This document shows, piece by piece, positions 1-59,806 of a stretch of DNA of 64,000 bases; the first letter of the stretch is position 1; every line of letters starts with the position of its first letter. The stretch covers positions 5,600,001 to 5,664,000 of the forward strand of contig OZ245838.1 of the NCBI GenBank assembly GCA_965228735.1. The letters are read 5' to 3'. Below the pieces are notes generated by a model. The model ran no database searches, was not told the DNA's origin, and saw only the letters and a list, made by a program, of their open reading frames with translations. The position numbers were made by a program, and so were the translations under genes. The stretch comes from Planctomycetota bacterium (lineage in GTDB: Bacteria; Planctomycetota; UBA1135; UBA2386).

Positions 1-675
1 GGACCGATCACGCGGCCGGCGCACATCTACGCGCAGTCCTTCAATGGACCGGCGAGCACGCCACTCGCGACGACGAGCATCACCGTCGGCCCGACGCCGG
101 GCTTCTACACGGCGACGTTCGCAGCGCCGGTCGCGGTGAACGGCACGTTCTACATCGGCTACGACAACGCGCTTGGCGGCGTCGTCAGCAACCTCACGGG
201 CGGCACGACGGGCCGCGGCTTCTTCCGCTCGCCGACGACCGGCGCGTGGGCGCAGAGCGGCCTCGTGCAGTTCCCGTCGTGGCGTGTCACCTGCGCGGGC
301 GGGCCGTTGTTCGCGTCGCCTTTGCTCGGCAACGTCGGCCTGCCGATCCTCGGTGGCAGCTACGACGTCACCCTCGATGACGCGGCGCCGTCCACCGCGG
401 CGTTCATGCTGGTTGGTCTGTCCGATCAGAGCTTCCAGGGCACCGCGTTGCCCGCGCCGATCCCGGGCGCGCCAGGCTGCGACGTCCAGGCGTCGCCGCA
501 CAGCACGCAGCTGATCTTCACGAGCGCGGCCGGCACCGCATCGACGAACCTCGGTGTTCCCAACACGCTGTCGTTCGTCGGCCTCGAGCTCTTCCATCAG
601 TGGGCCGTGCTCGATGCGGTGAACGCGATCGGCATCGTGGTCTCGGACGCGGGCAAGGCGACGGTCGGCGGCTGA
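1..675 (+). CDS. 5'-partial secreted protein ending in the shared Cys-containing C-terminal domain
   Basis: Frame 1 is open from base 1 to TGA at 673-675. The C-terminus has P-ILG, GAPGC, L.VP..LSFVG.ELFHQW...D and VSDAG, as in other secreted proteins in this window. Confidence 0.85.
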   Translation, partial: GPITRPAHIYAQSFNGPASTPLATTSITVGPTPGFYTATFAAPVAVNGTFYIGYDNALGGVVSNLTGGTTGRGFFRSPTTGAWAQSGLVQFPSWRVTCAGGPLFASPLLGNVGLPILGGSYDVTLDDAAPSTAAFMLVGLSDQSFQGTALPAPIPGAPGCDVQASPHSTQLIFTSAAGTASTNLGVPNTLSFVGLELFHQWAVLDAVNAIGIVVSDAGKATVGG

Positions 676-1006
676 CGGGGTGGGGCCGGTACGGCGCCTC
701 CGTTACGTTCGGCGCATGCACGCAGCCTGCACCTTCGTGGCGCTGGGTGCGGTCGATCTGGAGCTCGATGGCGCGACGCGGCTGCCGGGCGGCTCGACGC
801 GGTTCGGGGCGAAACGCGGTCAGGTCGCGGGCGAGGCCGTGGCGGGCGAGTTGCTCGTCGTCGAGTTCCCGATCCGCGCGCCGGCCGATCTCGGGGAGCG
901 GGCGGATCGCGGCGGATCCGGGCGCTGATCGGTCTGCCCGCCAATCTCCTGGGGCTGGCCGCCTCGCGCTTGCCTGTCGGTTGGGAGGTCGTAGGTTGCA
1001 GGCACC

Positions 1007-1246
1007 ATGACCGACCAGAAGAAGATCGTCGTCTACAGCGGTGCCGGTTGACCGGCGTGCACCATGGTGAAGGAGTTCCTCACCAAGAAGGGCCTGGAGT
1101 TCGAGGTCAAGGACGTCCACAACGACGCCGATGCGCAGAGCGACATGGTCGAGATGGGCATCATGTCGATCCCGGTGACGCGCATCGACGGCGGTGAGCC
1201 GATCGTCGGCGCGGACTACGCGAAGATCGAAGCCCAGCTGGCCTGA
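1007..1246 (+). CDS. Glutaredoxin/NrdH-like protein with probable selenocysteine (UPAC motif)
   Basis: ATG at 1007 gives MTDQKKIVVYSGAG-TGA(1049-1051)-PACTMVKEFLTKKGLEFEVKDV...MSIPVTRIDG..IVG. This is a glutaredoxin pattern with TGA at the first Cys of CxxC. Confidence 0.9.
1065..1085 (+). promoter_or_regulatory. Candidate bacterial SECIS hairpin
   Basis: TGGTG-A-AGG-[AGTT]-CCT-CACCA. The loop starts 22 nt after the UGA and has G at its second position. Confidence 0.7.
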
Positions 1247-1255
1247 TCGGCCGGT

Positions 1256-3667: not shown

Positions 3668-3691
3668 GGGCGGTGGATCCCGTCATTGAGA

Positions 3692-6054: not shown

Positions 6055-8727
6055 TCAGCGGGCCCACTCGGGCGGCAGCCGGATCGGGACCGTCGTGGTC
6101 TGACCGGCGGCGATGGCCGCGGTTCCGATGGTGACCCAGTGCGATCCGAGCGGATCCTCGAGGCCGCGGGCGCGGCCCTCCTGCCAGGCCGCGCGCCACG
6201 CCTCGTTCGACATCAAGCGCTTGGGGAGGGTGCGCAGGGTCACGTTCCTGGCGATCACTTCCTGCTCGGTCACGCCGGCCTCGTCGGTCGGTGGCAGTGA
6301 GTCGCCACCGGGTTCGAGCTGCACCGAGAGGCCGGCCACGGGTTTGCCGTCCGGGCCCGAGACTTCGAGTCGGAGGCTGCCGGTCGTGATCTCGAACGTC
6401 TGTCGCGTCGTCTGGCCGCGGACGATCGTGACCGTCGCCATGCTCTTGAAGCTGATCCAGCGGTCCCCGACCGACCTGCCGATCCGGAGGGGGTAGGTGC
6501 CGGGTCGGGTCTGCAGCGTGAACCGACCTTCGGCGTCGGTCTTGGCGACCTCCGATCCGCGGTCGCCGTCGAGCAGAACGCGGTCGTTGGCCCACGGCGC
6601 ACCGTTGAGGGTCACCACGCCTTCGAGAGTGCCCGGCAGGATCGCGGCCAGATCGAGATCGATCTCGGTGCGTTGGCCCGAGCGCAGCGTGACCGTACCG
6701 GCGGCGATGGGGTACGTGACGCGGGTCGACTCGCGCACTCCCACCGCGTTGACGACGACGTCCCACTCGCCGGGTGGGGCGCCCGACAGCACGAAGGTAT
6801 CGTCCTCGCGGATGCGGGTGCCCCGATCGGTGATCTGTCCGGTTTCCGGTGGCGGATAGGTCTCGTCGCCGCGCTTCAGCTGCAGCGTCGGTTTGCGGCG
6901 GTCCTCGAACGGTTGCCCGGCCGCGGTCTTCGCCAGCCGCCGGATCTCGTCGAGGACCTCGGTCGAGGTGACCCGGGCCAGGAGCTCCGCTCCCGGGTCC
7001 ACCGTCACGACGAAGTCAGTCGACTCGTCGAGCCGAACCGCCTCGAACTCCTGGGCGACGTGCCCCGGGCCAGGAAGCTGCACACCGACCGGTCGACTGC
7101 CGGGGCCGCGCAGAACGTACTCCCCCTTGCTGTCCGTCGTCCCGTTCGCGAGCACCATGATGTTGTCGTTCTGCGAGTTGATGAGCCAGTGCGAGCGCTC
7201 CATCACGTAGCGGCGCGGCCCGAAGCCGCCGCCGAACATCTCACAGAGGATCACGCGTGCGTCCGCGACCGGCTCACCGTTCGGGGTTCGGAGACGGAGC
7301 GTTCGCGCGATGGTGCGAGAGGCCCGCAGGTCGAGCCGCGTGTCGCGCGTCGCGTCGAGCGTGAACTCCTCGGTCAGCAACTCGAACTGCGCGGAGGCCG
7401 GGAAGTCGATGAAGAGCAGCCAGCTGCCGGCGGTCAGGCCAGCGACCTTGGCCGTGCCGTCCTCGTACGGACCGGTGGCCTTCACTTCGGCGTCCTGCGA
7501 GCTGAATCGATTCCGGCCGCGCGGGATGAGCCGCACGCTGTAGCGATCGATCGGCGCGTCGTCGGGATCCGTGATTCGGATCGTCAGGGTCGCGGCGGGA
7601 GAGAGCCGGAGTTCGATGCCCTGCTGGTTGACCTCGTATTCGGCTGCGGTCGTGAGGGGCTCGAACCCGTCGGCGTCGACGTTCAGCGTGATCTTGCCCG
7701 CGGTTCCGGAGTTCGTGCGGAGGCGCAGAGCGAAGGTGCCGTCACGCTTGGAGCTACCGTGCAACCAGGCGCCGTTGGTGCTGTGACCTTGGATCCTGGC
7801 GCGGGGAACCGGCTGACCGCGTTGGTCGACGACGCGGCCCGAGATCGTGTCGACCTCGGTCATCGGCTTCACGACGACACGCACGTCGGCTTCGGGCTCG
7901 CTCGCTTTGAGTTCGATCGGCGCCTCGTCCACGAGCTCCCGGTCCCGCACTCGGATCGTATACGTCCCAGGCGTCAGCCAGCCTCGCATCTCGAACGCAC
8001 CGTTCGGGCTCGTTCGGGTCTGCGAGCCCCAGCGCGGTCGGATCTCGCCGGTGATGGGGCTGGAGTCGCCAGTGTGGCTGAACGTCACGGTGGTCTCCGC
8101 GAGTGCCGCGCCGCTCGTCTCCACGACGTGACCGCGCACCCTGACCCCGGGTGTTACGGCGATGTCGCCGAGGTCGGTCGTCGAGCCCGGTTCGAGGCGG
8201 CCCCAGCGCGCCGACAACGCGCCGCAGCCCCGGCGTCGGACGTCGAGCGCGAACTGGAACGGCGGCGGCGGCCAGAAGCGGAACTCGAATCTGCCGTCGC
8301 TGGCGGTCGTGATCGCTGTCGGGTCCTCCCAAGCCGGCATCTCGTCGTGATCCCGGAGCCACTCGTCTTTCCGCCCCTGGTTGGCACCCCAACCATGCAG
8401 GTCGACGAGAGTGTCGGCCAGAGGTTGCCCGTCGGCATCGACGCAGCGACCCCGAACGATCGCGACGGGGCCGGTGAGCGCCGACGGGTCGGGCTCGGCA
8501 ACGGTGCGGTCCGGTGCGGGGGTCTCGTCGACCGCGGCCGGCTCGTCGTTCGCGACGCTCCTTGCCGCAGCCTTCGCCGCCGTCGGGCTGGGCGCAGCGT
8601 GATCGGTCGAGGTGTCGGTCGCGGCGTTGGCGGGGTGAGTGACGGCCTGGTCGGCAAACCACCAGATGCCGAGCGTGAACGCGATCGCGATGGCCAGCAG
8701 CGCGGTGAGGATCTGGCGTGGGTTCAT
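6055..8727 (-). CDS. Membrane-anchored protein with carboxypeptidase-regulatory-like (CarboxypepD_reg) beta-sandwich repeats
   Basis: N-terminal TM helix, Ala/Pro/Thr linker, and repeated GRVVD..G.P...A.V and TD..G.F motifs. Confidence 0.85.
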   Translation of the reverse strand: MNPRQILTALLAIAIAFTLGIWWFADQAVTHPANAATDTSTDHAAPSPTAAKAAARSVANDEPAAVDETPAPDRTVAEPDPSALTGPVAIVRGRCVDADGQPLADTLVDLHGWGANQGRKDEWLRDHDEMPAWEDPTAITTASDGRFEFRFWPPPPFQFALDVRRRGCGALSARWGRLEPGSTTDLGDIAVTPGVRVRGHVVETSGAALAETTVTFSHTGDSSPITGEIRPRWGSQTRTSPNGAFEMRGWLTPGTYTIRVRDRELVDEAPIELKASEPEADVRVVVKPMTEVDTISGRVVDQRGQPVPRARIQGHSTNGAWLHGSSKRDGTFALRLRTNSGTAGKITLNVDADGFEPLTTAAEYEVNQQGIELRLSPAATLTIRITDPDDAPIDRYSVRLIPRGRNRFSSQDAEVKATGPYEDGTAKVAGLTAGSWLLFIDFPASAQFELLTEEFTLDATRDTRLDLRASRTIARTLRLRTPNGEPVADARVILCEMFGGGFGPRRYVMERSHWLINSQNDNIMVLANGTTDSKGEYVLRGPGSRPVGVQLPGPGHVAQEFEAVRLDESTDFVVTVDPGAELLARVTSTEVLDEIRRLAKTAAGQPFEDRRKPTLQLKRGDETYPPPETGQITDRGTRIREDDTFVLSGAPPGEWDVVVNAVGVRESTRVTYPIAAGTVTLRSGQRTEIDLDLAAILPGTLEGVVTLNGAPWANDRVLLDGDRGSEVAKTDAEGRFTLQTRPGTYPLRIGRSVGDRWISFKSMATVTIVRGQTTRQTFEITTGSLRLEVSGPDGKPVAGLSVQLEPGGDSLPPTDEAGVTEQEVIARNVTLRTLPKRLMSNEAWRAAWQEGRARGLEDPLGSHWVTIGTAAIAAGQTTTVPIRLPPEWAR

Positions 8728-9870: not shown

Positions 9871-11772
9871 CTAAGGCGTGATCGTGATCGCGACCGCGTT
9901 GGTCGCGCCCGCGAAGCCGGTCGCGTCGACGAGCACGGCCGCGAAGTGACCGTTCGATGGCCACAGCAGCCCGCCGGTCGGCAACGTGAACGTCGCGTGA
10001 CCGATTCCGGCCGAATCGAGCGTGCCGAAGAAGCCGCCGAACATCGCGCCGTTCAAGAGCGACAACCCGAGCTGGGTGTGGAAGTCCTGGTTGAGCGGCA
10101 CGGTCGTGCCCGGCGCGAGCGTCGTGCCAGGCGTCGTGCCGGAGCAGCCCCATGCGACCAGGTAGAGCGTGCCGGGTGCGGCGCACGGGGCGACGACCGT
10201 CGGATGCAGCGCGCCACCCGCGCCCGTCGAGATGCTCGCGGCATCGAACGGGTAGACCAGCGGGTCGTCGAACTCGAGCTTGCTGAAGCACGGCCCGCCC
10301 TGTTGGACGAGCGCGATCAAGCGCGTGTTGTCGTTCTCGTTGGTTTCGAGCACGGCGTTCGCCCGGTCGGCGACGGCGGTGATGAAGTGCACCCCGGGCG
10401 CGAGGCGCCACGGTGCGTCGGCGACGTGCGCCAGGGCCTGCTGCTGGTTGGCCTGCAGCCCGGTGATCGTCGCGCTGCCGAGATAGACGTCGTTCGGCGA
10501 CCAACTCTGCGTCGCCGAGAGGAAGAACTCGACGTCGAACGACGCTGTCGCGGGGCCGGCGTTGTCCACCGTGTAGTTCAACGTCATCGTCTCGCCGGGC
10601 GAGACGTAGACGTCCTGGATCGACATCATCGGGATCGACAGTTGGGCGGCGGTCGGGTCGACGATGTCGAGGGTCCAGCTGTGCTCGTGCACCATGACCG
10701 CGGCCGGATCGACGCGAACGATGCTGGTGTTGTCGAGCACGCGGCACGTCACCGTGTGCTGGCCGAGCGCGAGTCCCGTCGTGTCGACGTTGTGGCTCGT
10801 CGTCGTCGCGCCAGGGATGACCTGGCCGTCGAGTTCCCACTCGAGCGTCGGCGCGTTGGCGATCGGCACGAAGTGGGTGAACGAGAACGCCTGCATGGCG
10901 CCGACGTTGACCTGCACCACCTGGTTCGCCGGCGTCGTCGAGTCGATCGCCTGGCAGATCGAGTTGGTCACCCGAGCGATGTTCTCTTGACAGACCGCGC
11001 AGAGCGGCTGGCCGAGCGAGCGCATCAGGCAATTGATGCGCGGGCGGTAGAGCCCGAACTGGTTGTAGCCGGCACCCTGATAGGCGCTCGAGCTGATGCC
11101 GCCCGTGCCCCACCAGTGCGACCACTTCTGGCCGGACGGTGACTTCGTGATGTTGACCTGGTTGGGCTCGGGGCCGGTGTAGGTCTGGCCCGCGTACTCG
11201 TACTCGTCCGCGAGCTGCCCGAGGCTGTGCCCGAGTTCGTGGATCTGCACCTGCGACATCTGCGCGCCGGTGTAGCTCACCGCGAACTGACCCGCGCAGC
11301 CGCCGTAGCGCGTATCGTTGACCATGACGAGCACGCGGCCCTCGGTCGCGGGCGCGAGGGCCGCGTCGGCGAGCGCCTGGGACGCGTTGCCGATGTAGAG
11401 GCAGCGCGGGGTGCCGCCCGTGTTGTACGACGCGTCGTAGACGGTGTTGCGGTAGATCGGCGGGCTGGCGTCCGGATGGTCGGCGCCGCTCTCGGCGCTC
11501 GCGCGGAACACCGTGTGCACGTTGTAGTACGACGCGAACGTCGAGTACGGCGGCGTCGCGAACAACGCCGCGAGGAACGTGGTCACGTCGCTGTCGAACT
11601 TGTTCTGCTCGAACGACTGGTAGCCGTCACCGAGGATGACGATGTCGTAGCGGGTCGACGTCGAGCCGTTGCTCAAGACGGTGTTGACGGTCTGCGCGGG
11701 CAGCGCCGAGCCCAGAGGCAAGGCGGAGGCGAGCAAAACGCCGACGGAGCACAGCATGGTGCGCGCGTTCAT
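9871..11772 (-). CDS. Secreted M64-family metallopeptidase with CARDB-like and C-terminal domains
   Basis: Signal peptide, DIVILGDGY, SAESGAD, YGG, HELGHSLGQLADEY, YRP..NCLMR and C..C. CARDB-like V.N.G...AD..N.V.E.NE.DN. Confidence 0.9.
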   Translation of the reverse strand: MNARTMLCSVGVLLASALPLGSALPAQTVNTVLSNGSTSTRYDIVILGDGYQSFEQNKFDSDVTTFLAALFATPPYSTFASYYNVHTVFRASAESGADHPDASPPIYRNTVYDASYNTGGTPRCLYIGNASQALADAALAPATEGRVLVMVNDTRYGGCAGQFAVSYTGAQMSQVQIHELGHSLGQLADEYEYAGQTYTGPEPNQVNITKSPSGQKWSHWWGTGGISSSAYQGAGYNQFGLYRPRINCLMRSLGQPLCAVCQENIARVTNSICQAIDSTTPANQVVQVNVGAMQAFSFTHFVPIANAPTLEWELDGQVIPGATTTSHNVDTTGLALGQHTVTCRVLDNTSIVRVDPAAVMVHEHSWTLDIVDPTAAQLSIPMMSIQDVYVSPGETMTLNYTVDNAGPATASFDVEFFLSATQSWSPNDVYLGSATITGLQANQQQALAHVADAPWRLAPGVHFITAVADRANAVLETNENDNTRLIALVQQGGPCFSKLEFDDPLVYPFDAASISTGAGGALHPTVVAPCAAPGTLYLVAWGCSGTTPGTTLAPGTTVPLNQDFHTQLGLSLLNGAMFGGFFGTLDSAGIGHATFTLPTGGLLWPSNGHFAAVLVDATGFAGATNAVAITITP

Positions 11773-19762: not shown

Positions 19763-19840
19763 CGCCGCGTGCAGCGGCAGGAGCAGCCCGTCGACCGCCA
19801 ACGAATCGGAGAAAAAGAGCCGAGCGGACGCGGCGGCCCT

Positions 19841-26518: not shown

Positions 26519-26563
26519 GGCGGCCTCGAAGGGAGAAGGGGAGAAGGGGGGCTGTTCCGGCGG

Positions 26564-37323: not shown

Positions 37324-39618
37324 TCAGCGGCGCGCCTGCACGCGCAGGCCGCGGGTCGTGCGCATGCCGGTCGGGTTGACGCCCGGCTCGAGCAGCGCCC
37401 ACTGGAAGTGCAGATCGGCCGGCGGCAGGAAGCCCGGGATCGGCAGATCCATCGCGGCACGGCCGACGACGCTCGTCACGAAGAACGCGGTGGCGAGGTG
37501 CATCGGCGGGTTCACGTCGACGAGCAGCGTGCATCCCGGCATGCCGAACGGCTGCAGCGAGGTCGACGCGCCGCCGAGCGACGCGACGAGGAACGCGCTC
37601 GTGTAGGCCGGCGCCTGCGCGACCTGGACGCGGCCGAACTCGAAGCCGAGCGCGTGGTCCCCGAACCAGCTGATGTTGGCCGTCGGGTGGCACGCGGTGC
37701 CGTAGATCGACGTCGACATCTGCTCGTAGGTGACGTAGTTGCCCATGAGCAGGTTGGTCGACGTGTTGTTGTCGACGTGGAACGCGACGGCGAAGCGTTC
37801 GTTGTCCTCGTCGTACGACACGCCGCCCGGAATCGGCTGGAAGCCCGGCACGTCGTAGAGCACGACGTGCTCCGTCCAATTGCCGTCGTAGCCGACCTTG
37901 CTCATGAGCAGCTTCTCGGAGCCCGCGTTGGTCGTCGCGTACGTCGTGACCCAGTGCGAGCGCGACTCGAGGTCGTAGGCGACGCTGCCCGGGATCTGAC
38001 CCGCGAGCGTGCCGCCGTAGAGGCTCCGCGACGGCGCCGGGAAGCTCGCGTGGACCGCGTTGTGCGGCCAGTCGATCCGCCGCGCGCGGATGTACGTGGA
38101 CCGGATGCCGGTCGGCTTGTTCAAGGGGCTCTGGTTGTGACCGTAGGTCACGAGGTAGCGCCCATCGGCGCCGGCCACGTCGGGCCCGACCTCGTGGAGG
38201 TTGCTGTTGTCGATGTGGCGGGCGTAGCTGAAGCCGCCGAACGCGCCCGGCGTGCGCTGCACGATGACGTTCCACTTGCCGGTGCTCGAGTTGTCGTGCT
38301 GCTGCCAGACGACGACCCACGAGAACTGGACGCCGCCCTCGGAGGTCTGGTTGACCGCCGGCCGTTCTTCGTCGGGGCTGACGGCGCCGAAGCCGAAGAC
38401 CGAACCGACGGGCGCGCCGTTGGAGCTGATCGCGGTGTCGATCTTGAGGCCGACGACCTGGCTGTGTGCCGTCTCCTGGAACGGCGCGGCCGGCTCACGC
38501 TGGAAAACGAGCAGCGCGACCGTGCCGGGCACCGACGACCTCGTGCCGCCGACGTCCGGACGCCAGTCACTCGTCCCCGCCTGGTAGGGCACCGAGCTCA
38601 CGCCGGTGCGCAGCGACAGGTCACTCTTGCCGTGGGTGTGCCAGCGCACGCGGCGGTCACCGCTCGCGAAATCGCGCTCGAAGACGGTGATCGTCTTGCC
38701 GGCACCGCTGCCGCCGACGCCCGCGATCTGGCCGTGCTGCGAGTTCCACGATGACGTGAGATCGTTGAAGACGGGGACACCGAGGCCGCTGAAGCCGTCG
38801 TCGTAGCGCACGCCGAAGATATCGATGTCGCTCGCCGACGCCGCGCTCGAGTAGATGACCCACACGTTGCGGGTGATCTGCTCGCCGTCGCGGTAGATGT
38901 CGACGTCCTGCGCGATCGGCACCAGCTCCAGGAGCTCGTTGCTCAGGACCGGGTCGACGACGATCGGGAACGTCGCCTGCTCGAGCCACTGGCCCGGGAG
39001 CCGCAGCTCGATCTGGCCGTTCTCGACGGCCGTCGTCATCTCGGCCACGTCGCCATTGCCGTCGATCGCGATGGCGTGGCCGTAGGTCACGGTCGCCACA
39101 CCCGCGTCGTCGAAGAACGTCACCGGACCGTGGGCGGCGCTGCGGTTCGTCGTCGTGAGATTGCCGCCGATCGAGCCACGAACGACGAGGTCGCCGGCGA
39201 TCGTCGGGCGGTCCGCGATCACGAACGTCTGGTGCAGGCCCTCCGCGAGCACGTCGTAGGCCTCGATGACGCCGCCGAGATCGTACTCGTAACGGAAGTC
39301 ACCGGCCCGGCGTGCGTGCGAACGACCGTTCGTGAGCTCGGTGCCGCCGACGCGGACGGCGGTCGTGCGCCAAGACAGTTCGCGGTTGGTCGCGACGTCC
39401 ATGCCGGCGTAGGGCACGAACGTCATGCCGCCGTGGAACGAGGCCTTGTAGTTCTTGCCGGCGGCCCAGGTGCCGTATGCGCCGCCGACCGGGTCGGCGT
39501 CCGAGGTGTGGATCGGCACGCGCAGCTCGGAGCGGTCGAAGTTCTGGGCGGCGAGGCCGGTCGACAACGCGCCGGCGAGCGCCATGCAAGTGAGAGCGGA
39601 GGAGACGGAGAGATTCAT
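37324..39618 (-). CDS. Large secreted protein with the shared C-terminal domain
   Basis: Signal peptide (LAAQ), V.E.Y.V...G..Q.F, FPIVVDP and beta-propeller-like P.V repeats. C-terminal YGTAC...FGMPGC...FQW. Confidence 0.87.
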   Translation of the reverse strand: MNLSVSSALTCMALAGALSTGLAAQNFDRSELRVPIHTSDADPVGGAYGTWAAGKNYKASFHGGMTFVPYAGMDVATNRELSWRTTAVRVGGTELTNGRSHARRAGDFRYEYDLGGVIEAYDVLAEGLHQTFVIADRPTIAGDLVVRGSIGGNLTTTNRSAAHGPVTFFDDAGVATVTYGHAIAIDGNGDVAEMTTAVENGQIELRLPGQWLEQATFPIVVDPVLSNELLELVPIAQDVDIYRDGEQITRNVWVIYSSAASASDIDIFGVRYDDGFSGLGVPVFNDLTSSWNSQHGQIAGVGGSGAGKTITVFERDFASGDRRVRWHTHGKSDLSLRTGVSSVPYQAGTSDWRPDVGGTRSSVPGTVALLVFQREPAAPFQETAHSQVVGLKIDTAISSNGAPVGSVFGFGAVSPDEERPAVNQTSEGGVQFSWVVVWQQHDNSSTGKWNVIVQRTPGAFGGFSYARHIDNSNLHEVGPDVAGADGRYLVTYGHNQSPLNKPTGIRSTYIRARRIDWPHNAVHASFPAPSRSLYGGTLAGQIPGSVAYDLESRSHWVTTYATTNAGSEKLLMSKVGYDGNWTEHVVLYDVPGFQPIPGGVSYDEDNERFAVAFHVDNNTSTNLLMGNYVTYEQMSTSIYGTACHPTANISWFGDHALGFEFGRVQVAQAPAYTSAFLVASLGGASTSLQPFGMPGCTLLVDVNPPMHLATAFFVTSVVGRAAMDLPIPGFLPPADLHFQWALLEPGVNPTGMRTTRGLRVQARR

Positions 39619-39841: not shown

Positions 39842-41209
39842 ATGATGCGACTCTCCGCCGTTCTCTCCGTTCTCGTCCTCGCCGCCTCGCCGGCCGTCGC
39901 GCAGGAGTGGCGTCTCGAAACGCCCGTTGCGTCCCCGATCGACCGCGCGTCGCACAGCGTCGTCTGTGATGCGGCGCGCGACCGCCTCGTCATGTTCGGC
40001 GGCTACAACTGGAACCTCGACGTGCACTACGACGAGACGTGGGAGTACGACGGTGCGACGTGGGCACAGCGGCACCCTCTGAGCGCGCCGGCCCCGCGCA
40101 AGCGCGCCGGCATGTGCTACGACTCCCGGCGCGGGGTCGTCGCCCTCTTCGGCGGCCTGCGCGACAGCTTCTGGGGGCCGACGACCTGGTTCGGTGACAC
40201 GTGGGAGTACGACGGAACGAACTGGACGCAGGTCCCGGTCTCGGGTCCCGTGCCCTCGGCGCGCTACTGCGATCTGACGTTCGACTCGGCCCGCGGTGTC
40301 GCGGTCCTCGTCGGTGGCACCGGCCCGACCGGTCGTCAGTCCGACACGTGGGAGTTCGATGGGACGACGTGGACGCAGCGCCACACGCCGACGACGTTGC
40401 CGCTGCGGCCGAGCTGGGCGACCGCGTTCGATGCGCGCCGCGGCGTGGTCGTCGCGCACCCCGAGTACGTCTACGGCAATCTCGGTGCGTGGGAGACGTG
40501 GGAGTACGACGGCACCGACTGGTCGCTCGCGACGTTCACGCTGTCGCCGGGCGCGTGCCCGTCGCCGGCCATGACGTTCGATGCGCAGCGCGGCAAGGTC
40601 GTGCTCGTCGGCGGTGCCTTCGCCGGCGTGCCCGACACCTGGGAATACGATGGCGTCGATTGGCAGCGCAGCGGGGTGAATCAGCTGACGGATGGCCTGA
40701 CGGGGCAAGCCCTCGCGTTCGACGCGGGCACCGGCAGTGTCGTGCTCTTCGGCGGCGAGAAGATCCAGGGGATCTTCGTCGTCGGCACCAACGAGACGTT
40801 CCGCTACGGGACGTTCGCGGGGTTCGACGTGATCGGCACGAGCTGCGGTCCGAACCGGCCGGCGCCGTTGCCGGCTCTCGCGGCGCCGAACGAGACGCCG
40901 CAACTCGGGGGCACGTTCGACGCCGTCGTTGACGATCTCATGTCCGCGGACCTGCCGGTCCTCGTCCTCGGTTTCGCGACCGCGAACAACGGGCTCGCCA
41001 ACCTCGGTCTGCCGGGTTGCACGCAGCACGTGCGCGTCGATGCGACGCACTTCCTGGCATCGCAAGGAAACAGCGCATCGTGGCAGCTCACGGTGCCGGC
41101 GCAGCCGGTGCTGCAGGGGGTGCAGCTGTTCGCGCAGGTGCTCGTGCTCGACGGCAACGCGCAGCCCGCCGCCGTCACCAACGGCGCGCGCTTGACGATC
41201 GGGCTGTAG
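39842..41209 (+). CDS. Secreted Kelch-like beta-propeller protein with the shared C-terminal domain
   Basis: Signal peptide and five to six D..R..V.FGG...DTWEYDG..W repeats. Confidence 0.9.
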   Translation: MMRLSAVLSVLVLAASPAVAQEWRLETPVASPIDRASHSVVCDAARDRLVMFGGYNWNLDVHYDETWEYDGATWAQRHPLSAPAPRKRAGMCYDSRRGVVALFGGLRDSFWGPTTWFGDTWEYDGTNWTQVPVSGPVPSARYCDLTFDSARGVAVLVGGTGPTGRQSDTWEFDGTTWTQRHTPTTLPLRPSWATAFDARRGVVVAHPEYVYGNLGAWETWEYDGTDWSLATFTLSPGACPSPAMTFDAQRGKVVLVGGAFAGVPDTWEYDGVDWQRSGVNQLTDGLTGQALAFDAGTGSVVLFGGEKIQGIFVVGTNETFRYGTFAGFDVIGTSCGPNRPAPLPALAAPNETPQLGGTFDAVVDDLMSADLPVLVLGFATANNGLANLGLPGCTQHVRVDATHFLASQGNSASWQLTVPAQPVLQGVQLFAQVLVLDGNAQPAAVTNGARLTIGL

Positions 41210-44988: not shown

Positions 44989-45336
44989 CTACTCCTCGTT
45001 CAGTCCTTCGAGGGTCGATGGCAGGTCGTGGGGCCGCGGTCGCTGCGCCGCCCCCCGCATGCCGATTATCCTGACCTTGCGGCGATCGTCGTCGATCGAG
45101 AACAGCAGGAGCTGGCTGCCCACCGCGAGTTCGCGAACCTCGTAGGCCCGATAGTTGTCTTCCGCAGCGAGGCGCGCTCGTCGGGGGAACCGTTCGAGAG
45201 AATGGAACGCGCGCCACACGCTTTCGAGCCAGCGCTCGGCATTGCGCGGCTGCTGCTGCTCGATCGCGATGTAGCGCGCCTGCTCGGCGATCGCCGCTCG
45301 CGCACTGGCGGTCAGCTCGACCGCGTATTCGCTCAT
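44989..45336 (-). CDS. Type II toxin, RelE/ParE family
   Basis: Y.V.LT.SA...I.....YIA....P.NA.RW.......SL..FP.R and V.II. Coupled to the antitoxin by ATGA. Confidence 0.88.
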   Translation of the reverse strand: MSEYAVELTASARAAIAEQARYIAIEQQQPRNAERWLESVWRAFHSLERFPRRARLAAEDNYRAYEVRELAVGSQLLLFSIDDDRRKVRIIGMRGAAQRPRPHDLPSTLEGLNEE

Positions 45337-45626
45337 CGTTTGAGTTTCAGGCCGAGTTCGTCGGCGATCTCGCGCAGCGCTGCCTTGGCCGGTTGCGTCC
45401 GGCCCTCCTGGATGTCCTTCATGCTGCGATCGAGGAGCGCCAGGCTGTCGAGGAGCTCGGCTTTGTCGGCGAGTGCGTCGTAGGCTTCCGGGCTCATGAC
45501 CACGGCATCCGTTTCGCCGTTCGTAGTGATGTAGAGCGGGCGGCCGGTCTCCCTGACCTGTTCGAAGTGATCGCGCAGGTGTTGGCGGTGTTCCGTGAAG
45601 CTGGTGATATCGGTGCTGCGGGCCAT
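45333..45626 (-). CDS. Type II antitoxin, Phd/YefM family
   Basis: I.SFTE.R..L......V.ETGRP.YIT.NG...AVVMS.E.Y. Confidence 0.9.
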   Translation of the reverse strand: MARSTDITSFTEHRQHLRDHFEQVRETGRPLYITTNGETDAVVMSPEAYDALADKAELLDSLALLDRSMKDIQEGRTQPAKAALREIADELGLKLKR

Positions 45627-45728: not shown

Positions 45729-47117
45729 CTAGTTGCCGACGAACACGCATAGCGCGTTCGTAGTGCGCGCACCGAGCACGTTGGTGCCGGGCGTCAGCAG
45801 CAGGCCCTGCGCGAAGAACGTCGTGCCGAGCAGGCCCGGCGCGGCCGGGATCGCGAGGGCGGCCTGCGCGATACTGCCGGCGATCGCCGCCGCCAGCGTC
45901 GCGTCGGGACTCGCGAGCAGCGTGCACCCCGGCGCGCCGTAGCCGGCGAGTCCGAGTGGCAGGCTGCCGAAGCTCGACGTCGAATCGCTCAGGCCGAGCG
46001 TGATCGCCACGGCCTGCACGTCGGGCTGCAGGAAGTCGATCGCGAACTCCGCCGTGCTGCCGGGAACCGGCGCCGCTGCCTCCGTGAGCGATTCGACGCC
46101 GCAGCCGCTGCCGAACCGATCCATGCCGGCGCCGAGCATCCAGGTGTCGTCGCGTGCCGCCGTGTAGTCGGTGTAGCCGGCGTGCATCACGATGCGGCCG
46201 TGACGCGGGCTGAACAGCATGCCGAACTCGGCGCGCAGCCCCGTCGGGGCGAACGGTGCGGGCATCGTCACGTCGGTCCACGAGGTGCCGTCGAACTCCC
46301 ACGTGTCGTTGGGCGACTCCGCGTTGATGTCGAGTCCGGAGTGCAGCACGAGCACGTCGCGTTCGGGGTCGTGGGCGAGGCGGGTCTGGAACCGGCCGAT
46401 CGGCAACGGACCCGCGACCGGAACCTGGGTCCAGTTCGTGCCGTCCCACGCCCACAGTTCACTCGAAAGCGGACCCGGGCCCATGCCGCCGATCACGTAC
46501 GTCGCTCCGCGCGATGGCCAATACGCCATCCCGTGGTCGCGCCGATTGCCCGGCCCGCCGGTGCCGCGCGACAGCCAATCGACGCCGTCGTACTCCCAGA
46601 CCTCGTGGTTGTTCGCGAAGCTCATCCAGTCGCCGCCGCCGTGCAGCACGACGACCTTGCGCGCGCTGTCGTAGACCATGCGATGCCGGATCAGGCCCGG
46701 TCCGTCGAAGCCCGGCAGCTGCGTGCCGGGCAACGTCGCGGTCGGCACGAGCTGCCACGTGGTGCCGTTGAACTCCCACGTTTCCGCATACACGGTCGTC
46801 GAGTACGACCCGCCGAAGCCGACGATCACGCTGCGATCCTCGTCGAACACGAGCTCCATGCCCTGGCGCACTGATGGCGAGTTGGTCGGGTGGATCTCGT
46901 TCCACGTGTCCGTGAAGAGCCACGTGTCGCCGAGGTAGGCGCCGCTCTCGTAGCCGCCGTAGCGCACGATGCCGTTCAGCTCGGGGTGGAACGCCATGGT
47001 CGCGCCGCGCGATGGCCGCGGCGGGGTGACCGTGGACTCGAGCCATTGAGCCGGCAGTGCAGCCGGGCTGGCGATGGCGGCGGCGAGCGCCGAGAGAGCG
47101 AGCAGGGAGCGGGTCAT
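45729..47117 (-). CDS. Secreted Kelch-like beta-propeller protein with the shared C-terminal domain
   Basis: Signal peptide (LPAQ) and FGG...TWEF.G..W repeats. C-terminal FGSGC...YGAPGC...FAQ...TNA. Confidence 0.9.
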   Translation of the reverse strand: MTRSLLALSALAAAIASPAALPAQWLESTVTPPRPSRGATMAFHPELNGIVRYGGYESGAYLGDTWLFTDTWNEIHPTNSPSVRQGMELVFDEDRSVIVGFGGSYSTTVYAETWEFNGTTWQLVPTATLPGTQLPGFDGPGLIRHRMVYDSARKVVVLHGGGDWMSFANNHEVWEYDGVDWLSRGTGGPGNRRDHGMAYWPSRGATYVIGGMGPGPLSSELWAWDGTNWTQVPVAGPLPIGRFQTRLAHDPERDVLVLHSGLDINAESPNDTWEFDGTSWTDVTMPAPFAPTGLRAEFGMLFSPRHGRIVMHAGYTDYTAARDDTWMLGAGMDRFGSGCGVESLTEAAAPVPGSTAEFAIDFLQPDVQAVAITLGLSDSTSSFGSLPLGLAGYGAPGCTLLASPDATLAAAIAGSIAQAALAIPAAPGLLGTTFFAQGLLLTPGTNVLGARTTNALCVFVGN

Positions 47118-52100: not shown

Positions 52101-52252
52101 GCATCGTGCACGAGCTCGCGGTCCCCGTTGCCGAGGTGGGCCGCGACCCGCAGCAACTCCGGCGCGGTCAGGTCGAACACCGCGGCCAGGGCCTCAGGTT
52201 CGCCGGTGCGCCGGAAGTGTGCGAAGCGTTCGTTCTCGTCGATTCGAGTCAT
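49193..52252 (-). CDS. ECF sigma factor fused to a TM helix and extracytoplasmic CarboxypepD_reg-like repeats
   Basis: Region 2 (D.LQ.TFL.A, RPWLLGIL.N) and region 4 (LP..FREV..L....GLS..EIG..LG.P.GTV.T...RG..RLR), then a TM helix and about 700 aa of G.V.D..G.P repeats. Confidence 0.9.
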   Translation of the reverse strand: MTRIDENERFAHFRRTGEPEALAAVFDLTAPELLRVAAHLGNGDRELVHDALQATFLTAIEDAEQWDEGRAVRPWLLGILANHVRKHRRQTRKQRGPDAATLHSVVAGGESPAGAAEQREFSSAATAAMQELPPPFREVIVLHLQHGLSAREIGDALGRPAGTVRTQVVRGLERLRSKLPAGFVGLTAVSVTLLAPDRVLAAVRGNVLGSLPATAAGSSSLFFTSWRLETMIATAIAATLAVLIPLFVGDDPTPLPHQASTTATTPRAELGRASPDRQLVAVNDSPTEAMPSPPQNERPAFDPQRPTVVFEVVYEEGDEPAAGVPIGILLDKTLQRWETDTDGKLEVALPWPGYHEVFVLGTGARDTIRWPDFVRPPTEPETCRLVIERGMTLEVRVVDADGKPVAGALVESSHGSQPHQMLSPFGRTDAEGKIVRRHIGTNGQLRAWADGHLPSRIINADGAVGDRRVQTLKLPGAGFAAHGTAHDEDGNPLQGAHLAFVQLTSIPRQPQFVITDAEGKFAIGALGRGNHALSGIHTKDGVTRRGHLRFSHGGDGGIVLDFKMTRGARVEGQLTNVQGQPLSGTNVVARDRPEGIHGLPFLETWSRSGKDGRFVIDGLVAGRYQLECEHCENRIIDLAPGEVATWNPQRASLSPVEFELVDSKGQPLAGWQIGVIPPGSEYPRGGSLTGEDGRLPSDSSGFRYPTGSFVRLAVSPPLGKHENKWQDFSRWPSLVTPPLAVGMEHRIRVPDHVRAMHRIQGAIVDAAGKPVPDSDVRLQGAFGSAWGNEFRTDPETGAFAAEDLPPGRYHAYAVAPNRPWLTLPPIDARGGGTIALGDIVLQELGRAIVTIVADADTSPPKRVELIGPGKSTSTWALRRQKDGTWRSRTLYRGEYTLRAWSNDAWAAPQKVRLEGDETRATATLTKHAPTRLSIDLPADFPRHLSSWSGKLIAKDAAGRTVQHKLTQPFYGTFTHHLEFTVPLPVGTHSLSVSGYYDSRGTTTCTVPAGGGGTARIVIE

Positions 52253-53731: not shown

Positions 53732-54886
53732 CTAGAAGCTCTGGCGCGTGCAGCCGTTGGCGTAGGCCATGCTCGTCGCCGGGTCGATGCCGATCGACTG
53801 GTGCACGATGCTCAGGCCGCCGATGAGCGTGCGGGCGGTCGGTGAGAAGTTCCAGGCGAACGTCGCTTCGCCGCCGCTCGTGAAGCCGAGCGCGATCTGC
53901 GAGAACGACGTCGTGTCGATGCACACCGCACCTTCACCGGGAACGAACAGCGACAGCGGGATGTCGGGCGCGATCGGCTGGAACGACGCGAAGAAGAACA
54001 CGGCCGAGTTGTCCGGCATGCCGGCCATGAACCAGCGGCTCACGATGTCGTCCATGCGACCCGGGTTGAGCGGCGGGTTGGCCGCGTCCGGGTAGAGGCC
54101 CGAGCCGCCGCCGGCCATGCCGGGGGGCGCGTTGCTGGCCACTGCCGAGGTCTGGTTGGTGACGGTGCACGCGACGCCCGCAGCGCCCGGCACGATCGCC
54201 TCGATCATCCACTGGCGTGACGTCGTCGTGTAGGTCGGGCCGAGCGTCGACGACGGGACGTAGTAGCCGCTCTGCCCTTCGCCGGGCGGCCCCGACGGCT
54301 GCGCGGGCCCCGCGAGGTCGTAGCTCGTGGCCGGCGGTTGGAACACGTAGTACATCGCGTGGCACGACAGTCCGTCGTTGGGCCACGTGGTTCCGGTCGG
54401 CTGCGGCAGTCCGATGCCGAGGAAGACGTCCGCGTTGGCGGGCGTCGTCATCGGGGTCGCGAAGTTCATCGAGTACCCGAACGCGATGGCGCCGGTCGCG
54501 GTGCTCGCCGGGGTCGGGAACGGGCCGGCCATGCCCTGCGGAGCGGTCACCAGCGGGTAGTCCAGGTTGGCCGGGTCCTCGGTGTAGACCAACAGGTCGT
54601 AGGTCTCGGGCGTGTTGCCGATCTGGTCCTGGATCGTGCCGGTGATGCCGGTCACGGTGCGCATCCCGGGGCTGCTCGCGTCGACGCCCCAGCCCGCGTA
54701 GCGGTCGCTGTCCAGCCGGACGAACGCGACGCTCGGGTTGGTATTGGGCGAGGAGTTGCTACCGCGCGAGGTGAACGAGACGCCGGTGTTGAGCAGCACG
54801 CCGAGCTCGCTCTGGGCGGCGGCGACGGTGGTCAGGGCGAGCGGCGCGAGCGCCGCGAGAACGAGAGGGCAGACAGATCGGGGCAT
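53732..54886 (-). CDS. Secreted hypothetical protein with a divergent form of the shared C-terminal domain
   Basis: RBS GGAG, signal peptide (AAAQ) and C-terminal G..C.D...G.A...G.SI.HQ...D. Confidence 0.85.
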   Translation of the reverse strand: MPRSVCPLVLAALAPLALTTVAAAQSELGVLLNTGVSFTSRGSNSSPNTNPSVAFVRLDSDRYAGWGVDASSPGMRTVTGITGTIQDQIGNTPETYDLLVYTEDPANLDYPLVTAPQGMAGPFPTPASTATGAIAFGYSMNFATPMTTPANADVFLGIGLPQPTGTTWPNDGLSCHAMYYVFQPPATSYDLAGPAQPSGPPGEGQSGYYVPSSTLGPTYTTTSRQWMIEAIVPGAAGVACTVTNQTSAVASNAPPGMAGGGSGLYPDAANPPLNPGRMDDIVSRWFMAGMPDNSAVFFFASFQPIAPDIPLSLFVPGEGAVCIDTTSFSQIALGFTSGGEATFAWNFSPTARTLIGGLSIVHQSIGIDPATSMAYANGCTRQSF

Positions 54887-56980: not shown

Positions 56981-58644
56981 GCCGGCGGACTTCGTGGTTG
57001 CTCGCCGGCGTCGCGGTGATCGCCGGCGCTGCAGCGCTGCCCGCGCAGAACGGGGATGTCGGCAAGGCGCTGCGCGCGCTGCGGGGCGGCGATGCCGACG
57101 CCTACGAGCCGGCGGAACGCCGGGCGCTCGTGCGCACCGTGCTCGCCGACCCGGAACGGCACCGCGCGCTCGAGGACGCGCTCGACGCCCGGATCGCGGT
57201 GGCCGTGCGCGACTATGCGGACGCGCTCGATGAACCGATCCGCGCGGCCTACATCGATCGCCTCCGGTCGCTCGAGCCGGCAGAGCTGCGCGAAGTCGCG
57301 CGCGTGCGACGCGTGTGGCGCAACTACGTCCTGCAACCGTCGACGCAGCTGCACTTCCAGCAACACTTCCTCGAACCCGCGACGGCCGTCGGTCAGCTGC
57401 TGCTGCCCGACGTCGCGCTGCTCGGCACCAAGGCGAGCGCTGCGGTGCTGCGGCGGATGCGCGAGCTCGACGGCTACCGTACGCTCGTGCGCGAGGCGCA
57501 GGGGCTCGGCGAGGATCCGACGGCGGGCCGGAAGGCGCCGACCGGCATCCCGCTGCCGCCGCTCGATCGACCGCGTGGCTTCGAGGAGTTCCTCGATCAT
57601 CTGCATCGCTCGCTGGCTGTCGCGAGCAGCGTCGCGGCGAAAGGGGCGCGCGATATCCTGCTGGACAACGCCGTGCAGGCGCGCTTCATCGACTTCGAGG
57701 AAGCGGAGTTCGTGCTCTACAGCAACGAGATCCGCGCGCTCATGGGCGTCGTCGCGTGGTCGACGGACGTGCTCGCATGCGCCGCGACCCGCGATCACAG
57801 CAAGGATCGCGTCGAGGGCAACGCGAAGGGTCACTGGTCGAGCCTGCCGGGCAAGCGCGGCTTCGTCGATCGCCTGCGGCGCTTCGGCACGGGCGGCACG
57901 AGCGAGGGTGCCGGCGGCGGCAACAGCGGGCGCCGCTACCTGCACGGTCTGAGCTACGGCGGCGGTCACACCGGGCCGCTGTACTCGATGCAGCGGAACC
58001 AGGTCGGGGTCGGGCGCTTCGGCAACTGCTACACGAGCACGTACGGCAAGAACGGGGGCAAGATCCACTCGTGTCAGGCCAGCGAGGGCGAGCTGTTCAT
58101 GCCGCCCGGGATCGGCCCGTCGGACATCGCGAGCAAGAGTCTGGAGGGCGTCTACCAGACGCTGTTGTTCGAGAACTACGTCGGCGCCGAGCAACTGCTC
58201 GACGAGGCGAAGGCAAAGACCGCGCCCGACAAGTTTCTGCGCAAGTACCTCGCCATCGCGATCGACGTCGAGGCGGATTGGCAGATCGAGTGCCTGCGGC
58301 GCTACGCGACCGTTGGCGACCTGCTCGCGGTCGAGCACCGGATCGCGACCATCCGCGGTATGTTCGGCGACTCGCTCGACCAGCGGTTGCGGCCGTTCGA
58401 GAAGCGGCTCGCGACGCGCGCGGCGGCCGATGTGCTCGCCGCCGGGCGCGACTTCGAGGCGGCGTGCAAGAGCGCGGACCAGGGGGCGTTCGAGGTCGTG
58501 ACGACCGCGCATCCGGAAACGGTCTACGCGCAGGCGGCACAGCACTATCTCGCCGCGGAGCAGGACAAGCACAAGGAGCCGCGCAGCTGGTTCCTCACCG
58601 TCGATCCGTACCTCGCCCGTTTCGAGTTCATGAACCCCAGGTAG
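56977..58644 (+). CDS. Secreted CAP (SCP) domain protein
   Basis: N..R..MG, L..A.RDHS.D, GH.S, SE and GH...L....N.VGVG motifs. GTGA overlap with the upstream gene. Confidence 0.78.
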   Translation: MSRRTSWLLAGVAVIAGAAALPAQNGDVGKALRALRGGDADAYEPAERRALVRTVLADPERHRALEDALDARIAVAVRDYADALDEPIRAAYIDRLRSLEPAELREVARVRRVWRNYVLQPSTQLHFQQHFLEPATAVGQLLLPDVALLGTKASAAVLRRMRELDGYRTLVREAQGLGEDPTAGRKAPTGIPLPPLDRPRGFEEFLDHLHRSLAVASSVAAKGARDILLDNAVQARFIDFEEAEFVLYSNEIRALMGVVAWSTDVLACAATRDHSKDRVEGNAKGHWSSLPGKRGFVDRLRRFGTGGTSEGAGGGNSGRRYLHGLSYGGGHTGPLYSMQRNQVGVGRFGNCYTSTYGKNGGKIHSCQASEGELFMPPGIGPSDIASKSLEGVYQTLLFENYVGAEQLLDEAKAKTAPDKFLRKYLAIAIDVEADWQIECLRRYATVGDLLAVEHRIATIRGMFGDSLDQRLRPFEKRLATRAAADVLAAGRDFEAACKSADQGAFEVVTTAHPETVYAQAAQHYLAAEQDKHKEPRSWFLTVDPYLARFEFMNPR

Positions 58645-58648
58645 CGCC

Positions 58649-59806
58649 ATGCCACACGTCCCCGTCGGGTCCGTTCTTCTCGTCCTTGTCGCCGCGACCG
58701 CTGGGAGCGCGAGGTTGAAGGCCCAATGGACCGGCGAGTGGACGATGGACATGACGGCGGGCAGCGTCGCGTTCGACCTGACGCCCAACGCCAACGACGG
58801 CGCGCTCATGAGCTTCACGGGGCCCAACCCATGGGTGCCGGGGATGTTCGGCAACGCGCTCTCGTTCGACGGGGTCGACGACTACGTGATGACGGCCAAC
58901 CAGACCGCCTCGATCTACGACGGTCTCGGGTCGCCCTACTCGGTGTGCTATTGGGTCAAAGCGCCGGCGCAGAACAACGCGTTCGTCTACGCCGAGGGCA
59001 CGATCGGCACGTCGGCGATCTTCATCTTCGGCAGCGGCCAGTTCCTGGCGGACCAGGACAAGTTTCGCACCTACCTGCGGAACGATCAGGGCGACGTGCC
59101 GCTCGTCGGAGTGTCCGACACGGTCGTCTACGACGACACGTGGCACCACGTCGCGTTCGTCGACGTCGCGGGCGACGTCAGCCTCTACATCGACGGCGTG
59201 CTCGACACGGCGACCATCGCCTACGATCCGTTGCGGCTGCCGGGCATGCCCGGTCACGGCACGTTCTCGATGAATACGGCGTCGATCGGCGCGCTGCGGC
59301 GCGGGTCGGTCTGCTGCAACATGGTCGGTCTCGTCGACGACCTGCGGCTCTACGACTTCGCGATGACCCAGACGGACGTGATGCTCGCGATGGCCAGCGT
59401 GCCGCTGATCACCGAGTCGGCGAGTGTCGGCGAGTACGGCGTCGGGTGCGGCGCGGGGCCGTTCGACGCGGTCGGTGTCGGCAGCGCGTCGCTCGGCGGC
59501 CCGGGGCTGCGTGTGGACATGCAGTCGGGACCGCCGAACGCACTCGCGTTTCAGCTCTGCAGCTTCCGGCCGATCCAGCCCGTCGACCTCGGGCAGTTCG
59601 GCTTCGCCGGTTGCACGGGCTACCCCCAGACGCCGACGTCGTTCGTCGTCGGGTTCCTGGACGCGGCGGGCAGTGGCAGCGGCCCGCTGATCGCGATCCC
59701 CAACAACCCGCTGCTGTCGTTCGTGCCGCTCAACTGTCAGGCGGCGGTGCTCGCCGGTTCGACGATCGAGTTCTCCGACGTCGTGCTCGCGGTGATGGGG
59801 CGGTAG
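58649..59806 (+). CDS. Secreted LamG-like jellyroll protein with the shared C-terminal domain
   Basis: G.FGNALSFDGVDDYV, D.TWHHVA, LYIDG and G.VDDLRLYD.A, then YGVGC...FGFAGC...IPN.P.L...Q. Confidence 0.9.
   Translation: MPHVPVGSVLLVLVAATAGSARLKAQWTGEWTMDMTAGSVAFDLTPNANDGALMSFTGPNPWVPGMFGNALSFDGVDDYVMTANQTASIYDGLGSPYSVCYWVKAPAQNNAFVYAEGTIGTSAIFIFGSGQFLADQDKFRTYLRNDQGDVPLVGVSDTVVYDDTWHHVAFVDVAGDVSLYIDGVLDTATIAYDPLRLPGMPGHGTFSMNTASIGALRRGSVCCNMVGLVDDLRLYDFAMTQTDVMLAMASVPLITESASVGEYGVGCGAGPFDAVGVGSASLGGPGLRVDMQSGPPNALAFQLCSFRPIQPVDLGQFGFAGCTGYPQTPTSFVVGFLDAAGSGSGPLIAIPNNPLLSFVPLNCQAAVLAGSTIEFSDVVLAVMGR

Follow-up and report, generated by a model that had tools for sequence, protein, structure and literature searches.

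Secreted proteins sharing a tail in the window

The window, meaning the whole stretch of 64,000 nucleotides analysed here, encodes seven secreted proteins whose C-terminal regions carry clear or divergent copies of a common domain. An S8 peptidase (PF00082) of about 954 aa enters the window with its 3' part (1..675, + strand), its gene starting 2189 bases upstream, and ends in a copy of the main subfamily, A, at about 283-675 (HMM 223-672, E 2.3e-26). On the - strand, an M64 peptidase with CARDB (9871..11772) ends in a subfamily-B tail at about 9871-10290, and a 764-aa protein without a Pfam match (37324..39618) carries the domain at about 37324-37710 (HMM 37330-37758, E 1e-14). Two Kelch propellers are found at 39842..41209 (+; domain at about 40815-41209, HMM 40781-41206, E 5.9e-25) and 45729..47117 (-; domain at about 45729-46125, HMM 45732-46166, E 9.3e-23). 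The remaining carriers are a 384-aa protein without a Pfam match (53732..54886, -), which has a divergent subfamily-E tail at about 53732-54100, and a LamG-like lectin (58649..59806, +) with the domain at about 59420-59806 (HMM 59381-59803, E 1.6e-11).

The five copies that a sequence-only reading had regarded as clear were all recovered in place with a genome-trained HMM (E 2.3e-26 to 1.6e-11), each ending at a stop codon. The two copies described as divergent fared differently. The tail at 53732 has two close paralogues, with which it forms subfamily E (three members in the genome), and is accepted as a member; it scores E 0.0015 with a broad HMM that includes this tail among its seeds. The M64 tail belongs to subfamily B, with 16 members, in which neither the pair of Cys nor the conserved Gln is present. 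The C-terminal half of subfamily B is homologous to the main family (HHalign 86%, over an alignment limited to the last 48 columns). The broad HMM fails to recover the M64 tail. Sec-type signal peptides ending A|Q precede all seven carriers, including the S8 peptidase that starts upstream, and no copy is present on the lipoprotein propellers at 41215 and 60330, as had been noted.

Census and architecture of the domain

The genome examined (G000) is that of a member of the Planctomycetota, with 7.2 Mb and 5284 genes on one contig, and is 93% complete. The main HMM, seeded on the five clear C-terminal tails of the window, detects 268 copies in the whole genome, about 263 of them independent of the seeds, while none of 61,526 reversed ORFs matches it at E<0.1. 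The domain is real, and much commoner than the seven copies noticed at first. Several divergent subfamilies coexist in the genome, and once they are added, carriers amount to approximately 380 of the 5284 genes (about 7%). Beyond this genome, the family comprises 21,356 clusters at 50% identity, and the members viewed in databases are labelled only by their cargo or as "hypothetical".

The domain is about 125-135 residues long and weakly conserved, with a median identity among copies of only 28% and conserved positions that are mostly Gly or Pro. The conserved polar residues are a Gln and a Ser-Asn; a conserved aromatic platform is absent. The disulfide-forming pair of cysteines assumed at first to characterize the domain is common yet dispensable, and therefore not a defining trait: Cys occurs in both segments in 170 of 256 terminal copies, subfamily B lacks the pair, and in the genomes of one family (f10) 12 of 20 copies are devoid of Cys over the final 125 residues.

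According to the main HMM, 246 of the 268 copies (92%) are terminal and 22 lie elsewhere, so that the largely terminal position is borne out, but not the expectation that it would be invariable. No ORF contains two copies (0/278 at E<0.01). Ten copies are N-terminal, placed straight after the signal peptide, and 11 proteins with a mature part of at most 175 aa consist essentially of the domain alone, these stand-alone copies showing variable loops. In eight further proteins a tail of about 25-30 aa extends beyond the domain, and all 28 homologues examined retain it, among them one paralogue from the same genome. Because of these three arrangements, a free C-terminus is dispensable. In an AF2 model of the tail-bearing family (pLDDT 95.9), residues 1..335 align to single jelly-roll domains over 133-152 positions, while Ig matches span only residues 172-303. 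The prediction is therefore that residues of the tail finish the cargo fold, placing the domain inside a cargo jelly-roll in this family. The cargo partners fall into approximately 99 groups, including peptidases and lectins. Adjacent carrier pairs number 62 in the genome where 19 would be expected, an excess suggestive of local duplication.

Predicted fold and comparison with known systems

The predicted model (pLDDT 97.3) is an all-beta, Ig-like sandwich that ends in a beta-strand and would include an inserted hydrophobic flap of about 20 residues. The best structural matches are generic Ig-like domains, namely PirB/LILR, TEP1/macroglobulin MG, invasin and SiiE (Z 8.3, rmsd 2.6-3.3, 89-95 aligned residues). 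However, this Z lies in the range of common arrangements, identity is 7-17%, and no match stands out. Just as the sequence-only reading could not assign the domain to a named family, none was found for 65 copies compared with Pfam and NCBIfam, nor in a PDB sequence search (best E 0.025); Foldseek against the PDB gave nothing at E<=0.001, and 30 of 30 ESM Atlas matches are unnamed clusters, the top three displayed being from Planctomycetota. The literature search, which did not extend to subscription journals and supplements, yielded no earlier description. As for the candidate relatives suggested for comparison, FlgD-Ig (PF13860) has no HMM match in the 65 copies, cohesin has no Pfam match in the same copies and is absent from the top 50 structural matches, and the T9SS CTD is likewise absent from the top 50 of the wide structure search, which leaves a likeness possible. 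Binding in a lipid cup, as in the ML-domain proteins Der f 2, NPC2 and GM2AP, and a Thr-Gln ester bond, prompted by matches to ester-bond adhesins, were set aside because Foldseek TM values were low (about 0.3-0.4), no His is conserved, and subfamily B lacks the Gln.

The T9SS CTD (TIGR04183/PF18962) resembles the domain in being an Ig-like beta-sandwich found once, and usually terminally, on many unrelated Sec-exported proteins. The RgpB CTD is described as Ig-like, with cleavage by PorU and A-LPS attachment (PMC4804311). The present domain differs in being about 125-135 aa long, in having a flap inserted and a Cys pair that is optional, and in occurring also N-terminally, alone or inserted. 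TIGR04183, TIGR04131 and PF18962 give no match at E<=1 in the 65 copies. PorV (PF19572) has no candidate in this 93%-complete, single-contig genome, whereas the Bacteroides control was positive; SprA (PF14349) and PorP/SprF (PF11751) also have no match, but the control genomes likewise gave none. Since PorV was not found, and N-terminal, stand-alone and predicted inserted copies exist, the domain is unlikely to be a cleaved T9SS-type signal and probably stays uncleaved.

The PEP-CTERM, GlyGly-CTERM and MYXO-CTERM signals consist of a short motif, a membrane helix and a basic tail. They share with the domain a C-terminal position, many copies per genome and an occurrence on signal-peptide proteins. 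In contrast, the domain is a folded soluble unit, and 265 of 270 carriers have no membrane helix, judged by the absence of hydrophobic 19-mers from the mature part. The original analogy to terminal tags of the T9SS CTD or PEP-CTERM kind was not supported.

Export and composition of the carriers

Gene calling and signal-peptide detection relied on home-made procedures, and location was inferred from composition. By the signal-peptide heuristic, 241 of 270 carriers have a signal peptide, as opposed to 1469 of 4570 other genes. Only three of 179 lipoprotein calls carry the domain, and one of them is a miscall. The sequence-only picture of a lineage-restricted module found singly on unrelated exported proteins, and almost never on lipoproteins, was upheld. 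The two apparent lipoproteins bear the domain despite having an anchor of their own, an observation that counts against a docking role.

The relation to location was assessed in A|Q-type signal-peptide proteins of at least 280 aa, scoring only the cargo part. The domain is carried by 253 of 296 proteins with an extracellular-type composition, 10 of 195 intermediate ones and none of 232 of periplasm type. It is sharply linked to Lys-poor composition (Lys 0.56% vs 2.75%). K+E+R is lower in carriers in 15 of 19 families that mix carriers and non-carriers, with the reverse in 4 of 19, and a single tagged sulfatase has 0.95% Lys versus 2.57% in 30 paralogues. Beta-rich folds skew composition in the same direction as extracellular location. 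That extracellular proteins tend to be cheap in composition has been published (PMC2932507). These data support the view that the domain marks one class of exported proteins and that its role is tied to a location outside the periplasm. An obligatory export signal would account just as well for the presence of the domain on nearly all Lys-poor secreted proteins.

Distribution, dockerins and candidate machinery

In a genome of the same order (G021, a 91%-complete MAG), the domain was not found, also with a broader model, but there are 39 dockerin matches; conversely, dockerins PF00404 and NF041540 give no match in G000. The G021 dockerins are terminal in 28 of 28 proteins of the stretches examined, five dockerin proteins have a tagged protein as their best G000 match, and the dockerin-tailed cargo is not Lys-poor (2.19%, without a genome baseline). 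In a sample of 301 genomes, none of the 62 that carry the domain has at least seven dockerin matches, versus 35 of 239 others, a contrast drawn among related genomes with only 13-20 candidates scored in each and one within-order case, G021. We know of no experimental test of the function of planctomycete dockerins. The type I (PF00404) and GC-type (NF041540) dockerins of other Planctomycetota are, similarly, single terminal modules on diverse secreted cargo, but they are unrelated in sequence and fold, the model of the present domain being all-beta without Ca-binding loops. Under the docking explanation given below, the domain would play the part that dockerin-type tails seem to have in other planctomycetes. 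Three genomes (G062, G052 and G053) remained essentially negative after the broader-model search. Another (G185), at first without the domain, revealed 25 copies with that model; divergent copies may thus have gone unnoticed in other "negative" genomes.

Phylogenetic profiling, proposed as a way to find co-occurring transport genes, identified no machine gene among those tested that tracks the domain specifically. A search with one query located a GspD-like N-terminal region in all 36 carrier genomes tested. This distribution is confounded with kinship, as the region also occurs in tag-less G021 and in 6 of 23 further genomes. In G000, gspD/E/F-like genes are adjacent, and their best matches (TIGR02517/02533/02120) fall just below the NCBIfam cut-offs. 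Giant Big_5 lipoproteins, detected with a three-sequence model, occur in 23 of 38 carriers and 0 of 41 others; because they are also present in tag-less G021 and were not found in eight carrier families, they look like a lineage marker and were not adopted as a partner. A twin-secretin/TPR/ExbB/ExbD operon was rejected as unspecific: all 38 carriers and G021 have it, and so do 30 of 41 others.

Possible roles of the domain

The explanation we favor, at about even chances, is that a retained Ig-like module docks folded, Sec-exported proteins non-covalently at the cell surface once they have left, likely through a T2SS. The precursor would enter the periplasm by its Sec signal peptide and fold there with an optional disulfide. 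A T2SS with the GspD-like secretin would be the likely outer-membrane route for the folded cargo. The domain would then be kept without cleavage and would dock its cargo through a common ligand, which might be a lipid or polysaccharide of the outer leaflet, a receptor protein or further copies of the domain itself. Of the sorting or anchoring role first envisaged, a location outside the periplasm is backed by the composition split, but a partner or a dedicated machine was not identified.

A close rival, possible though somewhat doubtful, is that a periplasmic receptor of a secretin machine, either the GspD-like T2SS or another one, reads the domain as a folded export signal that is portable, after which the cargo is released or attached otherwise. 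The presence of the domain on at least 85% of Lys-poor A|Q signal-peptide proteins and on none of periplasm type, its single copy per protein, an Ig-like fold such as that of the T9SS CTD, the secretin in all 36 carrier genomes tested and the two lipoprotein carriers would all be expected. However, the 11 cargo-free proteins are hard to reconcile with a pure tag, a median identity of 28% with mostly Gly/Pro conservation speaks against such reading, none of the machine genes tested follows the domain, and G021 keeps the same secretins without it. Cleavage by a protease or sortase at the surface, with covalent linkage of the cargo as in the T9SS, is extremely improbable. It would accord with the 92% of terminal copies, with the Ig-like fold and with a mature N-terminal Gln in 208 of 270 carriers, which recalls the Bacteroidota "Q-rule"; against it stand the missing PorV with a positive control, the lack of TIGR04183/TIGR04131 matches in 65 copies, and the N-terminal, stand-alone and predicted inserted copies.

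Alternatively, the domains could bind each other in a self-assembling, S-layer-like lattice in which diverse cargo is displayed and stand-alone copies serve as filler. Variable loops in those copies, the tolerance of N-terminal and inserted positions and the amount of carrier protein (176,585 of 2,075,063 encoded residues) agree with this, but 28% median identity and several divergent subfamilies per cell fit a regular lattice poorly, and no dominant S-layer-type subunit was identified, making a coat unlikely. Finally, the generic Ig-like fold, the 62 adjacent carrier pairs against 19 expected, and the conserved polar Gln and Ser-Asn could reflect an ordinary module that binds a substrate (carbohydrate or particle) or acts as a spacer, spread by shuffling and without a role in sorting or attachment. 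This is very improbable for a domain that is never repeated within one G000 protein, is joined to about 99 cargo groups including peptidases and lectins, has no conserved aromatic platform and covers nearly all of one compartment class.

Implications

A broader proposal, possible though somewhat doubtful, is that uncultured Planctomycetota possess a new targeting system. Its portable tag, uncleaved and able to sit at the N- or C-terminus or within a protein, would send nearly all soluble secreted proteins (about 7% of genes) through a secretin and hold them on the surface, and in evolution it could be exchanged with an unrelated dockerin tail. The apparent swap suggests that the orphan planctomycete dockerins and the tag serve one role. 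If this is right, a single HMM would pick out the proteins on and outside the cells in several widespread lineages of uncultured Planctomycetota. A standing question would become testable as well: by what means planctomycetes, for which this analysis detected no T9SS components, export hydrolytic and adhesive proteins and hold on to them.

Occurrence of the Tag Domain

The source genome (G000; 7.19 Mb, single contig) contains the window at G000:C1:5600001-5664000. The seven proteins named in the sequence-only reading are all present there, end as claimed and have A|Q signal peptides, cleaved between Ala and Gln. Their cargo comprises an S8 peptidase, an M64 peptidase with CARDB, two Kelch propellers and a LamG protein, and the remaining two have no assigned family. 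Starting from the five clear window tails, an HMM search converged at 268-269 ORFs in this genome, with no reversed ORF below E 0.1. The main model missed the tails at 9871 and 53732; the first falls into subfamily B, with 16 members, and the second into subfamily E, with 3. Further divergent subfamilies are C (15 members) and D (13 members); HHalign to the main family gave 96% for C, 93% for D and 86% for B, where only the C-terminal half aligns. Together with a broader tail model (controls: 4 matches in internal windows, 0 in reversed tails), these sets mark 380 of 5284 called genes, an approximate count, since gene and signal-peptide calls come from our own dicodon model and heuristic.

Sequence searches of Pfam, NCBIfam and PDB matched no family, and no published account was found in the literature searched. 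A database search at E<=0.001 matched 21,356 representatives, and 149 of the 150 top matches stop, as we read the table, no more than 15 residues short of the C-terminus. The cargo of 64 longer relatives scanned includes Kelch, PKD, FG-GAP, RCC1, Rax2, F5/8, C-type lectin and beta-helix domains. Among five proteins closely related to the first tagged one, four come from Planctomycetota MAGs and the fifth has a record titled Luminiphilus. A contig titled Luminiphilus sp. (L062), encoding a relative 48% identical to the tail of the S8 carrier, is probably misbinned.

Elsewhere in the window, carboxypeptidase-regulatory-like repeats are fused to an ECF sigma factor and recur in other, membrane-anchored proteins (49193-52252, 6055-8727, 28640-30922). 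A run of TauD-type dioxygenase, methyltransferase and haem-oxygenase-like iron enzyme genes (25562-28143) is a possible small biosynthetic cluster. Two neighbouring small lipoprotein-like genes (19247-20362) have no match in Pfam, and two small overlapping genes (44989-45626) look, from their sequences, like a toxin-antitoxin pair.

Fold and Position within the Protein

Tag-domain copies share a median pairwise identity of 28%, and the best-conserved columns are Pro/Gly, one Gln (95%) and Ser/Thr-Asn. The proposed two-Cys disulfide could form in only part of the family: the two Cys are common (59% and 65% at their columns), but copies from genomes of family f10 are mostly Cys-free, 12 of 20 having no Cys in the last 125 residues. 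The loop ahead of the second Cys has a median of 20 residues, 43% of them hydrophobic or Pro (42 of 63 rows measurable). An AlphaFold2 model from 63 copies is all-beta (pLDDT 97.3) and Ig-like; its best Z, 8.3, is to unrelated Ig domains, none of which stands out, and Foldseek returned nothing at E<=0.001.

The domain is mostly, rather than always, terminal: 246 of 268 copies lie within 15 residues of the stop. Among the 22 others, 10 directly follow the signal peptide, one is a weak match without a signal peptide and 11 have 17-34 residues after them. Eight of these 11 have a cargo domain and a tail in common, kept in 28/28 homologues examined. The model of this family (pLDDT 95.9) matches single jelly-roll domains, for example the 161-aa 3gbw_A (Z 7.6, 133 positions aligned at rmsd 3.5) and residues 11-174 of 7tog_A (Z 9.3, 151 aligned at rmsd 3.4). 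Because single jelly-roll matches span model positions 1..335 and Ig matches only 172-303, the tail is predicted to complete the cargo jelly-roll around an inserted tag domain, whose cleavage would, on this model, break the cargo fold. Eleven proteins are barely more than signal peptide and tag domain, although one or two may be fragments. No protein among 278 in G000 has two copies; four of the best 150 database matches have two stretches.

Carriers and Their Composition

A signal-peptidase-I call was made for 241 of the 270 carriers of the main family, against 1469 of the 4570 genes outside that set. The remaining 29 comprise two lipoprotein calls and 27 without a signal call, many of which look like wrongly called starts; 265 of the 270 lack a membrane helix. 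Genome-wide, A|Q cleavage is called for 805 proteins, suggesting N-terminal pyroglutamate, as occurs in Bacteroidota.

Among A|Q-type proteins of at least 280 aa, the cargo part alone was scored as (T+S+N+G) minus (K+E+R). The domain occurs in 253/296 high-scoring, 10/195 intermediate and 0/232 low-scoring proteins, with Lys at 0.56% vs 2.75%. In families mixing carriers and non-carriers, K+E+R is lower in carriers in 15/19. From this split we infer that carriers occupy a different compartment. The 43 high-scoring untagged proteins include barrels, MAM-like tails and more tails resembling divergent copies. Five Lys-poor secreted untagged proteins (e.g. G000 5690029, 5970101, 7038004, 2954019, 891893) end in a common domain, presumably MAM-like and possibly a second tail type. 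Of 112 lipoprotein calls of at least 280 aa, 3 are tagged, one being a miscall, and 22 equally high-scoring ones are untagged; the two neighbouring apparent lipoproteins at G000:2745276-2750395 are tagged, as exceptions to the rule that lipoproteins lack the domain. The carriers' trend agrees with low-cost extracellular composition as presented in PMC2932507.

Distribution and Candidate Machinery

The domain is present in 30/31 relatives, many with at least 134 matches, and in 62 of 301 genomes of a phylum sample (13 candidates scored per genome), as whole families. In G021, from the same order, neither the main nor the broader model found a copy, and there are 39 dockerin matches; in 20 stretches around these, 28/28 dockerin proteins end in dockerin. 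For 5/9 G021 dockerin proteins with any G000 match, the best is a tagged protein. In the G021 stretches (L100-L119), a shared ~110-aa segment with an IDARQP motif typically precedes the terminal dockerin, forming a bipartite tail module. Across the 301 sampled genomes, at least seven dockerin matches occur in 35/239 non-carriers versus 0/62 carriers (carrier maximum 5), a pattern rather than a statistic, because related genomes are not independent.

Of the T9SS components, PorV was not found in G000, with its control, in Bacteroides, matching; SprA and PorP searches gave no match, but without a working control. G000 has seven secretins, and a gspD/E/F-like cluster (G000:2199409-2204764) scores narrowly below NCBIfam cut-offs. 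The GspD-like N-terminal region occurs in 36/36 carrier genomes, in G021 and in 6/23 others, a distribution confounded with phylogenetic distance.

No partner was found among the candidates examined. The presence of a twin-secretin/ExbBD operon does not follow the domain; at L068 (G000:6769699-6784599) its order is secretin A, TPR (949 aa), TPR (390 aa), ExbB, ExbD, ExbD and secretin B, alike in most of 13 loci compared, with a secretin match in 69/80 genomes. Lipoprotein-like proteins of giant size (870-1314 aa), which combine Gly-rich cores with Big_5 domains, form clusters (L066, G000:2689303-2703361; L067, L069, L070) that adjoin a prepilin-peptidase-like gene and lie close to rpoBC. They likewise do not follow the domain, occurring in 24/80 genomes, with G021 the sole non-carrier.

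Proposed Mechanism

The tag domain resembles both the T9SS CTD, whose features are taken from PMC4804311, and dockerin in architecture, yet belongs to neither. In the proposed route, cargo crosses the inner membrane by Sec, as its signal peptides show; it would then fold in the periplasm, a disulfide being optional, probably exit through a T2SS-like secretin and probably stay attached by its retained tag domain. We consider this sequence of steps about evenly balanced between right and wrong. Retained attachment is favoured by the stand-alone, N-terminal and inserted copies, the rarity on lipoproteins and the apparent exchange with dockerin. A close rival, which we hold to be rather unlikely, is that the domain acts as a folded export signal. 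Retained attachment and folded export signalling may also be combined in the same domain.
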